Shown: positions 55,690 through 63,392 of the stretch, one piece after another | Layout: each line of letters begins with the position of its first letter | How positions within the stretch are numbered: the first letter of the stretch is position 1 | NCBI GenBank assembly: GCA_963662465.1 | Contig: OY759599.1 | Location: 3,232,001-3,296,000 of the forward strand | Source of the DNA: Desulfatiglandales bacterium | GTDB lineage: Bacteria; Desulfobacterota; DSM-4660; Desulfatiglandales; Desulfatiglandaceae | DNA: 64,000 bases | Direction of reading: 5' to 3' | Translations under genes and position numbers: made by a program | Notes under the pieces: generated by a model | The model's input: the letters and a program-made list of their open reading frames with translations, nothing else | Told to the model about the DNA's origin: nothing | The model's database searches: none

Positions 55690-56685
55690 TCACAAAAGCC
55701 CATCCAAAGGGCTTCGAACTACCGAAATGTCCTTTTCCATTACGTGGGTGTAGATCTCGGTGGTCTTCACATCCGCATGGCCCAACAATTCCTGAACCAC
55801 CCGAATGTTCACCCCGTTTTCAAGCAAATGCGTTGCAAAAGAATGGCGAAAGGTATGACAACCGACGGGTTTTGTAAGCCCCGCCTTTCCAACGGCGGCC
55901 TTCACGGCTTTTTGGAGCCCGGATTCAAGCACATGATGCCGCATTGTTTTACCTGATCGGGGATCCGTGCTGCGTTTTTTTGAGGGAAACACGTATTGCC
56001 AACCCAGGGATTTGGCGGCATTAGGGTATTTGCGAGCAAGGGCGTTCGGAAGATAAACGTCCCCATATCCATCCGCCAGGTCCCGCAGATGAAGATTTTC
56101 AGCCACTTCAACCTGATTTTTCATGAGGGAGTGGAGGGATTCCGGGAAAAGGGTGGTACGGTCCTTACCGCCCTTTGCGGCTCGAACGTAAATCAGCCTG
56201 CGTTCAAAATCAAGATCGCGAATACGCAAGCGGATGCACTCCATTAACCGCAGGCCGCTGCCATACAGGATTTTGGCCATGAGGAGATGTAACCCCTGCA
56301 TGTGTTCCAAAACAATGGAAACCTCCCGTTGGCTCATGACGACCGGGGGGCGGGAGCGTCTTTTGGCGCGGACAGGGTCAAGATCTTCGTCAACCGGAAT
56401 ATCAAGGACTCTTTTGTATAGGAAAATAATCGCATTGAGGGCTTGGCGCTGGGTGGAAGCGGCAACGTGTTGTTGGACCGCCAAATGGGACAGAAAGGTT
56501 TCAATTTCCTTCTTTCCCATATTCCGAGGATGGGTATTGCTCCCATGGTACCTGATATAGCGCATGATCCAATCGCAATAAGTTTGTTCGGTGCGATAGG
56601 CGTAGTGGTGATAGCGTAGAACCTGTCGAACCTGATCCATAAGACGAAGCTTGGGATCCGGTCGGAATTTTTTCGATTTTTCCAT
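55690..56685 (-). CDS. intI: Integron integrase
   Basis: Catalytic R (GLR), K (GGKDR), HTFRH, LGH and Y (EIYTH), plus the IntI-specific insertion [26 protein letters not shown]; start 56685 or 56706. Confidence 0.95.
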
Positions 56686-56758
56686 GCTATTGATGATATT
56701 ATTCAATAGATGGAAAAGTCAATAGGGTTTTTTCTATGTTTTGGGCTTTAATATCACA

Positions 56759-56828
56759 ATAGATGGAATTTTTTCCATGCTATAGAGGTAATAGGTAGAA
56801 AATTTTCCACCTATTGGGACTGTTGGAC
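56759..56828 (+). promoter_or_regulatory. Putative attI region
   Basis: Core G/TTGGAC at 56822-56828 upstream of divergent intI, complementary to R'' GTCCAAC of the first attC; palindromes at 56759-56783 and 56790-56815. Confidence 0.65.
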
Positions 56829-56889
56829 AGACCCGCTGGACAGCGGGGGAACTTAACGTCGAAAATTGGTAGAAATAGGTGAAATCGCA

Positions 56890-58065
56890 GTGGAAACGAC
56901 GATTCAGGGCATCTTTCTTCTTGGCTATGCCCTCTATAATCAGACGCATTGTCTTCCGGAACATATTCGTGAGGCGGCTCATCGTCTGATGTCCTGCCGC
57001 ACGTCCATTCTGGGGGGGCACGTCCAGGCATGTCCGGATGGTCACTTCCAGAGGGTCTGGTATAACTCGTGTAAACACCGTATGTGCCCACTCTGCGCCT
57101 TCACCCAGGTTGAGCGGTGGCTGGCGAAACAAAAGGCCCGACTCCTGAGTGCCGAGCATTTCCACGTTATTTTCACCATCTCCGATGAATTGCATGACTT
57201 ATGGCGGCTGAACCGTAAAGTCATGGCTAATCTGCTGTTCAAAAGCGCGACCGAGACCCTTTCCGAACTCCTTGGAGACCCGAAGCATTTGGGGGCCAAA
57301 GTCGGCATCATTGCCTCGTTGCATACCTGGAGCCGAAAATTGGATTTTCATCCCCATTTGCATTGTTTGGTGACGGCCGGTGGTCTGTCCGCCGGCGAGT
57401 GGATTGCTTCATCAAAAACGTTTCTTCTGCCGTTTGGCATTGTCCGGGCGGTTTTTCGAGGAAAATATCTCCACTATTTGAGAAAAGCCCTTGCCCGTGA
57501 AGAACTGATTCTGCCCGAAGGCATGGGACCGCAGCAGGCGCGAAACCTGTTTAATAAGTTGGGGCGCCGTAAGAAGTGGAACGTTAAACTCAAGGAGACC
57601 TATTCATACGGAGAAGGGGTCTTAATTTACCTGGCCCGGTATCTGAGAGGCGGACCGATCTCAAATAAACGCATCTTCCGCATTGAAAACGGAAACGTCA
57701 CCTTCAATTACGGTCGTGAGCGGGTAAGACTCATTACCTTGCCGATTCAAACCTTTATCGGCCGCTACCTGCAACACGTTCCCCTGGCGAATTCCATGAT
57801 GGTGCGTTCATACGGCCTTTACCATCACAACGCAAAAAAAGAACTGGCACGCTGCCGGGAAATACTGGGACAACCGGCACTTGAAGATACGGAATTTCTG
57901 GACTGGCAGAGTCTGTGGCAGCAGCGAAGCGACGAGCAACCGGATTGTTGCCCAGTTTGCGGGAAACGTCTTATTACGTTGAAAATAGTTGCACCGGTAA
58001 GAAAGTCAAAAAGTCTTCCGAGGTTCAATAAGGACCCGGATACGGTATATGCACAGGCAGCGTAA
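56890..58065 (+). mobile_element. IS91-family (HUH/Y2) transposase with N-terminal zinc-binding domain, in cassette position 1
   Basis: YNSCKHRMCPLC, HFHVIFT, HTW..FHPHLHC, YLARY, VRSYG, C-terminal CPVCG; GTG 56890 with AGGTG RBS. Confidence 0.92.
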
Positions 58066-58306
58066 AACGATAATAAACATGAGCATATTCAAAAAGGCAC
58101 TTGAATGGCGAGGCGTTTGGTAAAGGGATAAATAACGCGATATTTCAGGGTTTTTGACGGATCATGCAATTGAAAGCAGGAATTTTATCATCCTTAACCG
58201 GCCATGACGGGTTAAAAAGAGGTCACGCGACAGCTGAGAAGCTCCCTTAATCTCCATAGCCGATCTCCTGCTTCCGGCAAAGTATGTGCTGATGACCCGC
58301 GGCTCT

Positions 58307-58437
58307 GTCCAACACCCCGTTGAACTGGAAAACTGGTATTGGGAGATAAACCGAAATGCGTTGGTTCCTACGAAGTCACCAGCTGGAATGATAATATATT
58401 TTTTTGAACCCGTTTTCCAGTTAACTAAACGTTATGT
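58307..58437 (+). other. attC site 1
   Basis: R'' GTCCAAC, 5 nt, GTT[G]AACTGGAAAAC pairing with GTTTTCCAGTTAAC (extrahelical G), 5 nt, R' GTTATGT. Confidence 0.85.
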
Positions 58438-58456
58438 TTTAGAAAAGAGGCCTGTT

Positions 58457-59089
58457 TTGAAATTCCGTTTTGATGTAATTCTCATTTTGATCTTCTTTGC
58501 TCCAATAAATAGTGTAACAATTACATCTGATACTGGTATGACAATTTTCAGCTCTGAAAAAATCATTGATGCAGGATTTCATACACGGACCTATGCACGT
58601 TGGGAGTTCGGAGTAAATGATTCAAAATTCATTATATCAGGCTACACATATATTTCACGAACTGACTCTTTTTTTACTAATAAGTTAAGTGAATGGCGAA
58701 CACCTTTGGACATATCAATAATTCATTTATTTAAAAAAGCACTGTTAAAAGGCTTAGAATGGGACACTGTTGCTAAAAGCAACAATGTGGAGAACTATTC
58801 TAAGGAAATAGACAGCCTTGGCTACAACTTCAATATAATTTTTAAGGTCGATAACAACAAAAGCTATATACATGTTATAAGAAATGAATGGCCATATCCC
58901 CTAATCTTGGAGTGTGTAGATAACTATGACTTCATTAAAAATGCTCAACAATTGATATCTGCTATAGATAGTTTCCCAGATAAATACGAAAAATACAGAT
59001 CTCAAAAGGCGTTGGCAGTGCGTGAAAAGCAAAAAGGAATAAACACTATACAAGAAGAAAAAAAAAGTGTTGATGCTCTATTTGAATAG
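58457..59089 (+). CDS. Integron cassette 2 ORF, hypothetical exported protein
   Basis: GAGG RBS + TTG just after attC1; hydrophobic N-terminus; AT-rich; ends just before attC2. Confidence 0.75.
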   Translation: MKFRFDVILILIFFAPINSVTITSDTGMTIFSSEKIIDAGFHTRTYARWEFGVNDSKFIISGYTYISRTDSFFTNKLSEWRTPLDISIIHLFKKALLKGLEWDTVAKSNNVENYSKEIDSLGYNFNIIFKVDNNKSYIHVIRNEWPYPLILECVDNYDFIKNAQQLISAIDSFPDKYEKYRSQKALAVREKQKGINTIQEEKKSVDALFE

Positions 59090-59095
59090 TTGATT

Positions 59096-59220
59096 ACATA
59101 AACTTGCAGTACAGAGGGATAGCAAGGGCGGGCAACTATTGAAAATAGAGGTTTAGCAAAAGACGAATCATTTATGAAGGTCAGTAGAAGCCCTTGCTAC
59201 TCCTGACCGTAGTGTTATGC
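59096..59220 (+). other. attC site 2
   Basis: ACATAAAC ... TAGCAAGGGC pairing with GCCCTTGCTA ... R' GTTATGC; R'' matches the TTATGT cassette start. Confidence 0.7.
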
Positions 59221-59449
59221 CACCCCAACAAGAAGGCAGAAGATGAAGGGAAACCTCTGGAATCGACTGTGTATAAAGAAGTACTCCACGGCGTTTTTGG
59301 TGAACTAACGATCGAGAAGGTGCAACTTTCCAAAAAAGCACTTCAGCGAAGGTCGGAGCAGACTTTTTAAGGGTACTGTTTGTATATAGAAAAGCAAAAG
59401 CAGCACAATGATCATTCGATAATATATCAAAGCAAAAATGGAGCTTACC

Positions 59450-60427
59450 ATGCATTCTGTGATTCTTATTATGGTTGTTTCACTGGTTTTTGTAATTCCA
59501 TCAGAATCTTTTGCGCGGTTCTATAAATGGGTTGATGGAAATGGAAAGGTTCACATTTCAGACAGAGAACCGACCAGACCTGAGAAAGAAATGAATCAAA
59601 GAGAAGCAGAAGATGTAGCGCAAAATTCGAACTTCGATTTCAGAAAAACAAACTGGGGTATATCTAAATACGAAGTTCTTCAAAGTGAGGGTAATAAAGA
59701 CTTTAGAAATAGTGAGTATACTGATTTTGATGAGGAGATCATATGTGAAACCAAAGCTTTCGGAAAAACATGTGTTTTATGTTACGAATTTCTCAAAAAC
59801 AAACTTGTATGCGCAAAATACGCTTTCCTTGGTGATAAGAAAAGAGGAGATATTTCCGTTACCGATTTCGTATATTTTGAGAGACAACTTAGAAAAAAAT
59901 ATGGGGAGCCAAAGGCAGAAAAAACTGATACTTTGCCATACAAAGTGAGTTGGGAAACTGACGCTACAGATATCCAGATTATTTACCGTAAGAATTCAAT
60001 CCCTGGTGTTGATTATCACTGCTGCAATATTGAGTTTAAAAGCAAAAAATTAAAACCTCTTATGGAAAAAAAGTATGCGGAGAATAAAGCGAAACAGCAA
60101 CAAGAATTTGAAAAAATGTTCTCTGAATTTCAGAAAAAAAATAAAGTATCAAATACAGAATACAATGGTGATTTCTCCGATGCAACCAATGTTATAAGAA
60201 ATGACTGTGCAAACAAATGGCAAAATGATTTTAGAATGCAGGAATATTGTATCCAGAAACAGGAAGACGCGCTTATCGCTTTGAAAAAGGGTAAACCAAA
60301 CGATATTCCTTCTGATGTGTTCGCAAAAATAAGATCCGAATGTAAATCTAAATGGGGAAACGATTTTCGAATGAGAGAACATTGTGAAAAGAAACAATGT
60401 TCAGCTTGGCGAAGGCTGAACCATTAG
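59450..60427 (+). CDS. Cassette ORF: secreted DUF4124-like protein with two C-terminal C-x-x-K-W-x-N-D-F-R-M-x-E-x-C repeats
   Basis: Signal peptide, FYKWVDGNGKVHISD, CANKWQNDFRMQEYC and CKSKWGNDFRMREHC. Confidence 0.8.
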   Translation: MHSVILIMVVSLVFVIPSESFARFYKWVDGNGKVHISDREPTRPEKEMNQREAEDVAQNSNFDFRKTNWGISKYEVLQSEGNKDFRNSEYTDFDEEIICETKAFGKTCVLCYEFLKNKLVCAKYAFLGDKKRGDISVTDFVYFERQLRKKYGEPKAEKTDTLPYKVSWETDATDIQIIYRKNSIPGVDYHCCNIEFKSKKLKPLMEKKYAENKAKQQQEFEKMFSEFQKKNKVSNTEYNGDFSDATNVIRNDCANKWQNDFRMQEYCIQKQEDALIALKKGKPNDIPSDVFAKIRSECKSKWGNDFRMREHCEKKQCSAWRRLNH

Positions 60428-60474
60428 ATTGTTGGATAGCAATTACCAAAAATATTTTTTTAGGGGGTTACCTT

Positions 60475-60789
60475 ATGGCTTTCTGGAGTGATTTTCTCTC
60501 TAAACTGAAACTTTTTGATTTCCAAACTTCTCTCAAAACGGATCAGGCTGGAGCTGTAAATGTTAAGGTTCATAACAATACTTATCACTTACACTATCAT
60601 GATATTCAAGCAGTAGAGAAATTTAAAGCAGCAGCAATAACACCAGATTTTGAACAAGCTGTAAAAGAAGAGGTTGATAGGAAACTGCAACCCTTGAATT
60701 ACATCCTTAGCACACTTTCGCAAGCAGTATCGGGCGAGGTTGTTTTGGCATCAACGCTGGAATCAGCAATAGAAAACATCAAAATGTAA
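60475..60789 (+). CDS. Cassette ORF, hypothetical protein
   Basis: AGGGGG RBS, ATG 60475, 104 aa. Confidence 0.6.
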   Translation: MAFWSDFLSKLKLFDFQTSLKTDQAGAVNVKVHNNTYHLHYHDIQAVEKFKAAAITPDFEQAVKEEVDRKLQPLNYILSTLSQAVSGEVVLASTLESAIENIKM

Positions 60790-60904
60790 ACTTGGGATGA
60801 ATGAGAATGTGAGGCAAACAAATAGCCTTGTTTATGTAAGTGAATGCAAAAAATAAGTTTATAAGTGCTTGCTAAAGTTGATAGATAACAAAGGAGGAAT
60901 TAAT

Positions 60905-61342
60905 ATGAAACATGCAAATGTTTTGGTAATGATTTTATTTAGCATTATCTTCTTGAATGCGAACGTTTGTAATGCAGATGACATATCGTCAATTAGCAAA
61001 TTGGAATTATATGAAGAAAATACAGACTCAAAACCAGAGATGGATTCACTGAAAATATATGTCATATTTGGGGACAAACATGCTAAAAGAATTAACCCCC
61101 TTGATGGGATCACTATGGATTATACCTGCAAAATTTACAGTTATGAGGGCGGTAAAAAAGGAAACAAAATAAATGAAGATAGAGGTAAGTTGATTTCTGA
61201 AAGAGGATTTACATCGTTTGTAATAAAAATGCCACGCATAGCAGAAAAAAAGAGAGTGTTAGCAGATGTTACTGTTAAACTGCCAGATGGAAGAACCGTG
61301 CAGGGAAAAAGAAGTGATACCTTCGATCCAGAGAAATATTGA
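60905..61342 (+). CDS. Cassette ORF, secreted hypothetical protein
   Basis: AGGAGG RBS, signal peptide. Confidence 0.75.
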   Translation: MKHANVLVMILFSIIFLNANVCNADDISSISKLELYEENTDSKPEMDSLKIYVIFGDKHAKRINPLDGITMDYTCKIYSYEGGKKGNKINEDRGKLISERGFTSFVIKMPRIAEKKRVLADVTVKLPDGRTVQGKRSDTFDPEKY

Positions 61343-61405
61343 TTTGCTGAAACAGGTATGTTTCAAAATTTCCTAATTGTGACGAGGCTTAATTGGAGTA
61401 TTCAT

Positions 61406-61458
61406 ACATAACCCAGCGCTGCACCAGATGTCTGATAGTGAGGCGGTCCTGGCGGGGC
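61406..61458 (+). other. Half attC (left arm only)
   Basis: ACATAAC-ccagc-GCTGCACCAGAtgtCTGATA..GGCGGTCC.GGCGGGG, close to the left arm of the attC at 63307; no matching L'/R' found. Confidence 0.65.
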
Positions 61459-61641
61459 ACGACCATGGGTGTTTTGGATGCAGATTTGGCATTTTATTGC
61501 CTTTGAGTTATTTAGTTAGAATGAGCAATTTTGAATCAGAGCATTTTCCAGGTTTGGGTTGGTAGTCTTTACTCTTTTTGGCTGGTGTCAGGGTGTGGAG
61601 GGATATTAAAACTGATAATGTTAAAAAAGGGAGGTGTCGTT

Positions 61642-62076
61642 GTGAGAATTAGAAAAATTTTGTTTTGCGGAGCTATTCTTGTATCAGCCATTTTTTCCAT
61701 GTTTTCATTATCGACTGCAGAGAAACGACTAGAATCATTGAACTCTGTGGATTTGATAACGGTTAGTTCATATGTCAAAGATGGCGTCTTGAGCATCAAA
61801 TTTTTTTACAAGAATAGAGATGAGGATAAATATGTTTATTGGAAGGAAGGAACGGTAAGTTGCCAGTGTAAAGTTTATGAAGATGTAGGAAACAAGAAAA
61901 AAAAACAAAAGATTATCGGGATAGATAAGAAATTAAAACGTTACGACCAGAGGTTTTATTTGGATGTCCCTAAGCAGTACCTAAATAAAGGGAAAAAGGC
62001 AATCATTGAATGCTCAGTTAATATTGGATACAAAACATTAAACGTAACCGATGGTGGTGTATCTCTGGATGATTAA
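61642..62076 (+). CDS. Cassette ORF, secreted hypothetical protein
   Basis: GGAGGT RBS, GTG 61642, signal peptide. Confidence 0.72.
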   Translation: MRIRKILFCGAILVSAIFSMFSLSTAEKRLESLNSVDLITVSSYVKDGVLSIKFFYKNRDEDKYVYWKEGTVSCQCKVYEDVGNKKKKQKIIGIDKKLKRYDQRFYLDVPKQYLNKGKKAIIECSVNIGYKTLNVTDGGVSLDD

Positions 62077-62111
62077 GGCATTACACAGGTAGTAATTAGG
62101 AGCCCTATAAG

Positions 62112-63278
62112 ATGTATTTATTGAATGGTTTTTTGATTTTGTGCCTGTTGCTGTTTAGCTCATTGGATGGATTTGCAAAAGTATATAAATGGGTCGATAA
62201 AAATGGACAGACCCACATTGCAGATAAAAAGGTTCTCGAGGGTTGTCTCAGAGGCGACTGCATAAATGGAACGGGGACCTATTTTCTTGCTGATGGTCAA
62301 AGATATACGGGTGAATTCGAGAACGGAAAGTTTCATGGGCAAGGAATTGCGACTTTTCCTGATGGTAGCGAATATATGGGTGGGTTCAAGAACGGAATAC
62401 CCCATGGACAAGGAATTTTGACCGATTCTGATGGTAGAAGATATGTGGGTGAGTTCAAAGACGGAAAGTTTGATGGGCAAGGAGCTTTGATCGATACTGA
62501 TGGTACGATACGTAAAACAGGAAAACCACTCCCAAAAAACCCAATTTCTGTTATTGACCGAACTAAAGCAAAAAATGATTTGAAGGAGAGCCTATTAAGA
62601 AAATATGGAGATAGCTATTCTACTATTAAGCTTCTGTTAGATTCAGGGATGAAAGCTTATGAATACCTATGTGAAATACCAAGTAACTCAATTAACAATG
62701 GTATCCTAGCAAAACTAAACAGAGAGTATTACCCAAATTTTTCAACAATCGAAATGTTGTATAAATCAAACATAAAAGCATACTCAGAACTTAATCTCGA
62801 AGAACAAAAAAAAGAGGGAATAGATTCACAACCTCATGTCACAGAAATCACAACGTCAACAGAATATAAAACCATGAGCAAACAACTGTTTAGCGCAGGG
62901 AAATTCGATGAGGCTGAAGTCTTTATGAGCAATAGCATTGAGCTAAACAAAAATGATTTGGAAGCTTATTTTATCCGCGCTGTAATCTATCAAAAACTTA
63001 AAAAGAATAAATTAGCCATTAAAGACATTGATCGATGTGTCGAATTAGAACCAACCAATGGCAAGTACTACCACGATAGAGCCATTTTGCTCATAACAGA
63101 GAACAAATTCCAACTGGCATTTGATGATATCAAGACCGCTGAAAGATTAGGTTACATTGGAGAATTGACAGGAAAAATTAAGAACATAGAAAATGATTTT
63201 AATATGCTTCAAATACGTGCACGTTCCGGTAATAAGAAAGCACAGAGTCTTTTAACCGAAAAGGGGGTTAGCTGGTAG
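62112..63278 (+). CDS. Cassette ORF: secreted DUF4124-like + MORN-repeat + TPR protein
   Basis: VYKWVDKNGQTH; YTGEFENGKFHGQG-type repeat x3; C-terminal TPR-like helices. Confidence 0.85.
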   Translation: MYLLNGFLILCLLLFSSLDGFAKVYKWVDKNGQTHIADKKVLEGCLRGDCINGTGTYFLADGQRYTGEFENGKFHGQGIATFPDGSEYMGGFKNGIPHGQGILTDSDGRRYVGEFKDGKFDGQGALIDTDGTIRKTGKPLPKNPISVIDRTKAKNDLKESLLRKYGDSYSTIKLLLDSGMKAYEYLCEIPSNSINNGILAKLNREYYPNFSTIEMLYKSNIKAYSELNLEEQKKEGIDSQPHVTEITTSTEYKTMSKQLFSAGKFDEAEVFMSNSIELNKNDLEAYFIRAVIYQKLKKNKLAIKDIDRCVELEPTNGKYYHDRAILLITENKFQLAFDDIKTAERLGYIGELTGKIKNIENDFNMLQIRARSGNKKAQSLLTEKGVSW

Positions 63279-63306
63279 ATACAAAAGCGTTAGAAAACAC
63301 TTCATT

Positions 63307-63392
63307 TCATAACCAAACGCTGCACCAGACGCCTGATACTTCGGCGGTCCCGGCGGGGGCCGGAGGAGGCGCTGGTGAGCTTATCGTTCGCG
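63307..63392 (+). other. attC site (canonical)
   Basis: R'' TCATAAC, GCT[G]CACCAG[A]CGCCT pairing with AGGCGCTGGTGAGC (two extrahelical bases), R' GTTCGCG. Confidence 0.88.

Follow-up and report, generated by a model that had tools for sequence, protein, structure and literature searches.

Classical IS91 elements move by rolling circle using their ori and ter ends, and the strand they displace begins at ori and is antisense to the transposase gene. In CTX-phi and IMEX elements, an HUH Rep protein makes single-stranded DNA (ssDNA), a host tyrosine recombinase inserts the folded site, and the copies stack in tandem. The gene cassettes of integrons are usually seen as passive cargo of the integrase IntI, and IntI alone can duplicate them. 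IS1111-attC elements and group IIC-attC introns are also tied to attC, and they interrupt a resident attC.

The tetranucleotides of IS91 are described in the accessible part of PMC5737581. Precedents in print for the cassette reported here are, in the available portions of the papers concerned, brief mentions: ISKpn22 in In722, ISShvi3 and ISCR28. ISShvi3 adjoining an attC makes a new cassette structure (PMC9229058), an attC at or after ISCR28 was read as passive shuffling with data not shown (the sul4 paper, PMC12772301), and In722 occurs with and without ISKpn22, for which the accessible text of PMC12772345 gives no mechanism. We found no account of a solo (single-gene) cassette family or of its mechanism in the full-text literature, in which few subscription journals were covered, nor in the accessible parts of PMC7923331, PMC5620268 and PMC13393415. 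A search from a Thiolapillus relative did not reach ISCR28, which is compared here by description only.

The window is the whole stretch of 64,000 nt analysed here, the forward strand of a Desulfatiglandales bacterium genome (GCA_963662465.1, OY759599.1:3,232,001-3,296,000). Coordinates elsewhere in this genome are given as G000:C1, and the loci of relatives are labelled L plus a number. On sequence grounds, positions 56823-58431 of the window are a real gene cassette, consisting of an IS91-family HUH/Y2 gene and its own attC, in first position behind a real IntI. This assignment draws on the bulged attC geometry, a unit bounded by G/TT, an attC that moves with the gene, and the place at the attI of a true IntI. 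The features, with the evidence for each, are as follows.

55690..56706, minus strand: intI, the integron integrase and host platform (TIGR02249 profile, IntI-specific insertion).
56763..56824, plus strand: attI region with the crossover G/TT at 56822/56823, left boundary approximate (attI comparison).
56822..56836, plus strand: left arm of the terminal inverted repeat, the R' of the circle plus an 8-bp extension (arm comparison).
56823..58431, plus strand: mobile unit, the gene cassette from TT to G, 1,609 bp (tandem period; ends common to the genome copies).
56825..56847, plus strand: terIS-like end, GGAC, 3 nt and a GC-rich hairpin at 56832-56847 (layout of canonical left ends).
56890..58065, plus strand: IS91-family HUH/Y2 nuclease gene, 391 aa (profile matches, conserved residues, dN/dS).
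58249..58259, plus strand: oriIS-like motif AATCTCCATAG (likeness to five canonical elements).
58299..58313, plus strand: right arm of the terminal inverted repeat, ending in R'' (14/15 in the window copy).
58307..58437, plus strand: attC, the cassette's own (box geometry; identical in all near-identical copies).
58307-58313, 58319-58326, 58419-58425 and 58431-58437, plus strand: the attC boxes R'', L'', L' and R' (geometry).

The longest open reading frame of the unit spans 56866-58065, and its likely start is the GTG at 56890. The product matches Pfam Y2_Tnp (E 5e-49), Zn_Tnp_IS91 and the NCBIfam IS91 transposase profile NF033538 (357 bits, cut-off 125), and 31/31 aligned homologues retain the HUH histidines (H154/H156), the tyrosines Y247/Y251 and the Zn cysteines. 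Judged by dN/dS (0.04-0.10 in six pairs), the gene is under purifying selection. A structure model (pLDDT 81) gave no Foldseek match at E <= 0.001, the best fold matches being HUH nucleases. This is the only open reading frame in the 1,609-bp unit; unlike in the two-gene elements described below, the neighbouring integrase is divergent and lies outside the unit. The first-pass annotation had placed an intact Y2/HUH transposase between an attI core and an attC, and all of its coordinates were borne out.

The divergent integrase upstream of the cassette scores 444 bits against TIGR02249 (cut-off 265) and carries the IntI-specific insertion. To place the attI crossover, 20 loci were examined, and 12 other genomes of the family had an attI in register; the shared sequence ends at the same G in all of them, which fixes the crossover at 56822/56823. 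This G is followed by TT in eight genomes, AT in one, other bases in two, and the contig end after a single T in one. A transposase cassette stands first at 0/12 of these homologous attI sites; in the host genome it stands first behind 3/4 full-length IntI-like genes. Further IntI-like genes (G000:C1:4982227, 6133962, 6845293/6847921 and 7979569) include one full-length gene and several broken or split ones, and G000:C1:3747480-3747800 is an attI-like site with the transposase cassette first and no adjoining intI. Co-mobilisation of intI with the cassette was considered and rejected, because two near-identical integrons have different attI sites and identical cassettes. Within the window attI, 56790-56815 form a strong palindrome. 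Together with the ter hairpin it lies in the region 56780-56850, whose predicted fold has a z-score of -4.6 to -5.8. A promoter scan returned four matches against 2.5 expected. The array that follows (58431-63308) is AT-rich and encodes mostly uncharacterised proteins predicted to look secreted; DUF4124 occurs in two of its proteins and MORN/TPR repeats in one. It includes a decayed common attC at 61407-61520, 84% identical over 51 nt to the site at 63308 and lacking its right half, and a weak attC candidate at 59099-59221.

Sites of the attC type were called by a purpose-made geometric heuristic, and 58307-58437 is the best of three in the 64-kb window. Both spacers are 5 nt, L'' has an extra (extrahelical) G, and L' matches at 7/7 positions. 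Over its full 131 nt the site is no more stably folded than shuffled sequences (z -0.73), since its loop is long and unstructured, and the attC was therefore judged by geometry and comparison. It is unlike the common 86-bp attC of this genome and varies with the transposase subtype among the genome copies, indicating that it belongs to the element.

The ends of the cassette are complementary beyond the R boxes, at 14/15 positions in the window copy exactly as first described, and at 15/15 in the genome's 86%- and 75%-identity subtypes. The first 7 bp had been singled out as an exact complement between R'' and the cassette start. This match turned out to be normal for cassettes, as 23 control cassettes average 3.6/4 over the four variable R-box bases. 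It is the 8-bp extension that is out of the ordinary: the same controls average 3.1/8 (maximum 5), the extension reaches 7.4/8 in 13 loci of at least 59% identity and 5.1/8 in 43 loci of 48-58%, and 15 two-gene loci average 6.3/8. These averages, for which seven mis-anchored or duplicate loci were dropped, come from kin and not from independent loci, and the left ends were chosen by best match and agree with the motif-defined ends. Some members, L114, L142 and L143, match poorly in the extension (2-4 of 8). In a modelled circle junction, the repeat is predicted to lengthen the attC stem (centroid structure) and to displace the ter hairpin, with a fold energy of -40.1 vs -26.3 kcal/mol for the integrated end. 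The longer hairpin proposed earlier for the excised circle is thus reproduced by prediction.

We also found that the element keeps both IS91-type ends, as recognised by sequence likeness. At the 5' end, G/TT-GGAC-3 nt-GC hairpin is the layout of the left ends in IS91, IS1294-like and IS801-like plasmid records; the hairpin is predicted by folding, and the layout is conserved across relatives. At the 3' end, the oriIS-like motif resembles the sequence that precedes the target tetranucleotide in five canonical records, and it is present in 87 loci. The terminal repeats have not taken the place of ori and ter, since both ends are retained. Within these ends, the part that hardly varies is a GT(T/C)C / G(A/G)AC tetranucleotide. 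After the ori motif come a 47-nt linker, the repeat arm and attC, with no GAAC/CAAG target abutting as in canonical elements. The linker between the ori motif and R'' differs greatly among relatives, with about 15-65 nt from the start of the motif to R''; in canonical elements 4-5 nt separate the motif from the target. Since the length of this linker varies so widely, homology does not fix the nick site, and any exact position given for it is a guess.

Compared with the IS91, IS1294, IS801 and ISCR elements, the cassette thus shares the HUH-Y2 and Zn-finger protein, the terIS-like tetranucleotide and hairpin on the 5' side and the oriIS-like motif on the 3' side. However, its protein is only 22-29% identical to theirs and falls in a separate clade, and where canonical IS91-type elements have their target after ori, the window cassette has an attC, G/TT insertion at att sites and a terminal inverted repeat. 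It is an IS91-family derivative that fails the test of IS91 targeting. With ordinary cassettes it shares the canonical attC, the G/TT crossover, the complementarity of R'' and cassette start, and first position at attI. Unlike them, it encodes a replication/transposition nuclease with its sites in cis, carries the extra 8 bp of repeat and is multi-copy.

The genome holds 17 close copies (75-100% protein identity), and 17/17 lie at integron junctions, so the expectation that close homologues would be tied to integron sites, and not scattered at random, was confirmed. Their left junctions are an attI with IntI (three), the attI-like site without IntI (one), the attC of the previous copy in tandem (seven), the attC of other cassettes (four, one judged by eye) and a group II intron end (two). 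In the two intron-preceded copies the intron ends at element base 7, and the introns come after the attC R'. On the right, 15/17 copies end in their full own attC followed by G/TT (14) or G/AT (1), with different neighbours. One of the remaining two is truncated; the other is cut at the GTT of L'' and joined to a 163-bp cassette without an open reading frame, which suggests recombination at the L box. This small cassette has its own 129-bp attC and lies at approximately G000:C1:3355698-3355988 and 3208415-3208699.

Eight copies stand in tandem at C1:4412355-4425229, head to tail behind a second intI, and only the last junction base differs among these eight units. In two runs of one sample, possibly the source of the genome, contigs had a depth of 346-351 over the cassette vs 34-49 in its flanks (run X1) and of 423-424 vs 42-52 (run X2). 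This depth of 7-10 times the flanks fits the ten near-identical assembled copies, with no excess, and the contigs listed showed no back-joint of a circle. Among the 46 distinct cassette 3' ends in the genome, 39 occur once. Those that recur belong to transposase cassettes (10 and 3 copies), to four mutually overlapping groups that derive from introns, and to a single further cassette located behind a transposase cassette. On the carriage of neighbouring cassettes raised earlier, one array has two copies, 99.7% identical, of a 6,684-bp block made up of a transposase cassette and the intron-bearing cassette after it (G000:C1:6782942-6789625 and 6740378-6747061), a duplication that IntI alone could account for. 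As an internal control, 12 copies of an IS91-like family of 23% identity are dispersed, with plain ends and without an attC of their own; these copies (G000:C1:381072, 506199, 1051500 and nine more) have a small downstream open reading frame and a terminal hairpin. The arrays of this genome lie at 3.21-3.35, 3.74, 4.41 and 6.73-6.84 Mb, and at 19 of their scored attC sites a group II intron-like 5' end was seen about 6 nt past the crossover G, on the cassette strand.

To follow the design beyond this genome, we collected relatives by a protein search that gave 3,306 matches, with at least 51% identity among the 120 listed. The loci came from genome contigs (31), metagenomes (the best 80 of 296 loci) and plasmids, and 28/401 genomes of a phylum sample matched. 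Solo relatives were counted at identities of at least 48% in loci with enough sequence. The ori motif and R'' are present together in 50/57 of them. A hairpin closed by G(T/A)T was found in 39/44 testable relatives (3.6% in shuffles), and the extra-base L'' pattern in 34/44, of which 14 have L'-R' spacers of 5-6 nt and 20 of 7-9 nt. These counts come from a final, anchored attC scanner; two earlier scanners had missed the long-spacer sites, and the anchored one mis-anchored L035, L047 and L048, where the earlier ones found canonical sites. The seven relatives without ori and R'' include an intron in R'' (L044), an insertion before an intact site (L039), an ori deletion (L091), a one-base R'' variant (L083), an intron interruption seen by eye (L072) and a degenerate locus (L006); the seventh is L038. 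The intron of L044 is of group II and lies in reverse orientation within R'', like group IIC-attC introns, and the attC resumes beyond it. A solo cassette can thus itself be struck by such an intron.

The left flanks of 71 solo relatives were scored as a forward attC in 23 (0.4% in shuffles), ambiguous in one, with a divergent integrase match nearby in six and neither in 41, some of which appear by eye to be attI-like sites or missed attCs and many of which do not. At most 1/71 flanks represents an inverted insertion into R''. The first-pass annotation had offered an HUH element that targets attC or attI. Targeting of resident attC hairpins in the manner of IS1111 is not supported, since the copies bring their own attC and stand forward at R' or attI, unlike IS1111-attC elements and group IIC-attC introns. 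In the 54 non-attC flanks, the base at -1 is G in 43, A in seven, C in three and T in one, and an A/T-rich patch lies at -10 to -7. The non-G bases depart from the GWT rule, a consensus given in the accessible part of bioRxiv 2022.09.11.507474. The moving unit runs from TT to the G of attC and inserts forward at attI, at the R' of an attC or at G/WT-like secondary sites. Neighbouring transposase cassettes recur in three unrelated loci (L007, L056 and L061). One sub-lineage (L071, L073, L077, L081, L092, L093 and L101) has a hairpin without the position-4 extra base and with a long spacer, and several of its left flanks show a CCGA(T/G)AA motif 5-6 nt before TT and no attC.

A more distant relative (37% identity; WP_032492616.1, L142) occupies the fourth cassette position in a class 1 integron carried by 11 plasmids. 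We infer from the part of PMC12772345 that describes it that this is ISKpn22 of In722. Like the window element, it is a solo IS91-family gene between the previous attC and its own canonical attC, and it starts at G/TTGAAC. Unlike it, it has no resolved place in the tree, an extension of 3/8 and a single copy in 11/11 plasmids. Another solo relative (39%), at L143:2950-4280 on a small plasmid, has an open reading frame that runs through its own attC.

At 32-41% identity, we found two-gene relatives that also encode a tyrosine recombinase, co-oriented and lacking the IntI insertion, within the same ends: G/TT-G(A/G)AC-hairpin on the left, and the ori motif, repeat arm, R''-like box, hairpin and GTT on the right. 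The ori motif with GT(C/T)CAAC is present in 16/25 of these elements. A closing hairpin was found in 13/15 testable ones (6.7% in shuffles) and the extra L'' base in 0/15, and 22/24 left flanks did not score as attC. They thus differ from solo cassettes in having their own recombinase and hairpins without the extra base, and they form a separate clade. The outer triplet changes on both ends together in L019, L122, L124, L127 and L144, and in L130 at two of three bases; L145 fits this pairing poorly, and G(A/G)AC/GT(T/C)C stays constant. The closest published systems of this two-gene kind are those of Smyshlyaev et al. (bioRxiv 542381) and ISShvi3; according to the accessible part of the former, the recombinases of the IS91/IS3 type are the closest homologues of IntI and lack its insertion. 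In L007 (1280-6950), an IntI is followed by a two-gene recombinase-HUH element and then by two tandem solo cassettes at the hairpin GTT of that element. This contig was binned as archaeal, an assignment open to doubt because the identical protein occurs in L006, which comes from a bacterial bin.

A quick tree of 105 of the 135 rows recovered the solo group (62 rows, SH-aLRT 95), the two-gene group (33 rows, SH-aLRT 99, three of them without a detected recombinase) and the canonical elements with the dispersed family (6 rows, SH-aLRT 99). L019 and L021 are probably mis-extracted open reading frames that distort the midpoint root, and as the root is unreliable we read no direction of descent from the tree. 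The cassette design is real, ancient and widespread.

It is very probable that the cassette was inserted by a tyrosine recombinase. On balance we lean towards a fuller model, in which an IS91-type rolling-circle element has given rise to a selfish integron cassette, inserted by IntI and amplified by its HUH enzyme. The host IntI would excise and insert it like any other cassette. In the resulting circle, or at a tandem junction, attC would fold out with its stem lengthened by the terminal repeat, bringing the terIS GT(C/T)C beside the ori motif. The HUH protein would nick there and copy the unit by rolling circle. The displaced strand would be the bottom strand of attC, the one IntI recombines, and insertion of the ssDNA circles by IntI, for the most part at attI, would produce the copies in first position and in tandem. 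Rolling-circle amplification itself is inferred. The HUH protein would act as Rep and IntI as integrase, and CTX-phi follows the same logic with XerC. The likeness to CTX-phi and IMEX elements is functional only: the cassette goes to attI and attC via IntI and not to dif via XerCD, it has no phage genes, and its Rep is of the IS91 family. The idea first put forward, a transposase that uses IntI by mimicking a cassette, survives in its first half, with IntI as the best-fitting integrase, and loses the mimicry, because attC travels with the gene.

Under a more conventional reading, the cassette is passive: IntI alone moves and duplicates it, and the HUH gene is kept for something else, such as defence or the nicking of foreign ssDNA, or is captured cargo. 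Each junction is explicable by IntI, contig depth reveals no excess of circles, the In722 relative is single-copy on all its plasmids, and the sul4 paper, in its accessible part, reads the attC-linked ISCR28 in this way. However, this reading leaves unexplained why relatives of as little as about 33% protein identity still carry ori, ter and the terminal repeat in cis and why transposase cassettes are the main repeated and tandem ones, and we regard it as unlikely. If instead the HUH enzyme transferred strands itself, homing to attI and attC cores and carrying attC along, the non-G bases at -1 (11/54 non-attC flanks), the many flanks without a scored att site and the non-canonical spacers of one lineage would be accommodated. 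The crossover nevertheless falls before TT with the right-hand G supplied by the element, as for IntI; the extra-base pattern goes with reliance on IntI (34/44) and is missing where the element has its own recombinase (0/15); in two-gene relatives, the same ends still enclose a tyrosine recombinase; and the ori motif lacks the tetranucleotide target that comes after it in IS91. Such homing seems to us quite improbable.

Slightly less credence than homing deserves goes to a reservoir in which the HUH enzyme still carries out classical transposition of the part from ori to ter, with attC staying where it was, and movement of the complete cassette falls to IntI. The intact terIS-like and oriIS-like ends and their near-invariant GT(T/C)C/G(A/G)AC would be expected, yet no attC-less insertion is present among the 17 genome copies, and four of the 7/57 relatives without ori and R'' have other explanations. 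An assembly artefact is barely credible as the source of the multiple and tandem copies. The eight tandem units are near-identical and no contig spans the array, but the depth is 7-10 times that of the flanks, copies at other junctions have diverged to 75-88%, adjacent copies recur in three unrelated loci, and the window copy is single and unaffected.

If the model of a self-replicating cassette is true, integrons would have a built-in amplifier and a supply of ssDNA substrate for IntI, and the presence of an IS91-family gene in a clinical class 1 integron would be explained. More speculatively, and with a good deal of doubt, such cassettes may be one branch of a wide class whose members generate ssDNA circles with an IS91-type HUH Rep and rely on a tyrosine recombinase for their integration via a folded hairpin. 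The two-gene members would be autonomous and a living model of a proto-integron, IntI and attC would have come from a rolling-circle transposon, and the solo members would parasitise the host IntI and could amplify co-travelling cassettes. The contrast between solo members with bulged attC and IntI, and two-gene members with a bulge-less hairpin and an insertion-less recombinase, makes the origin of attC and IntI testable, and it suggests a role for the recombinase of many IS91-like elements.
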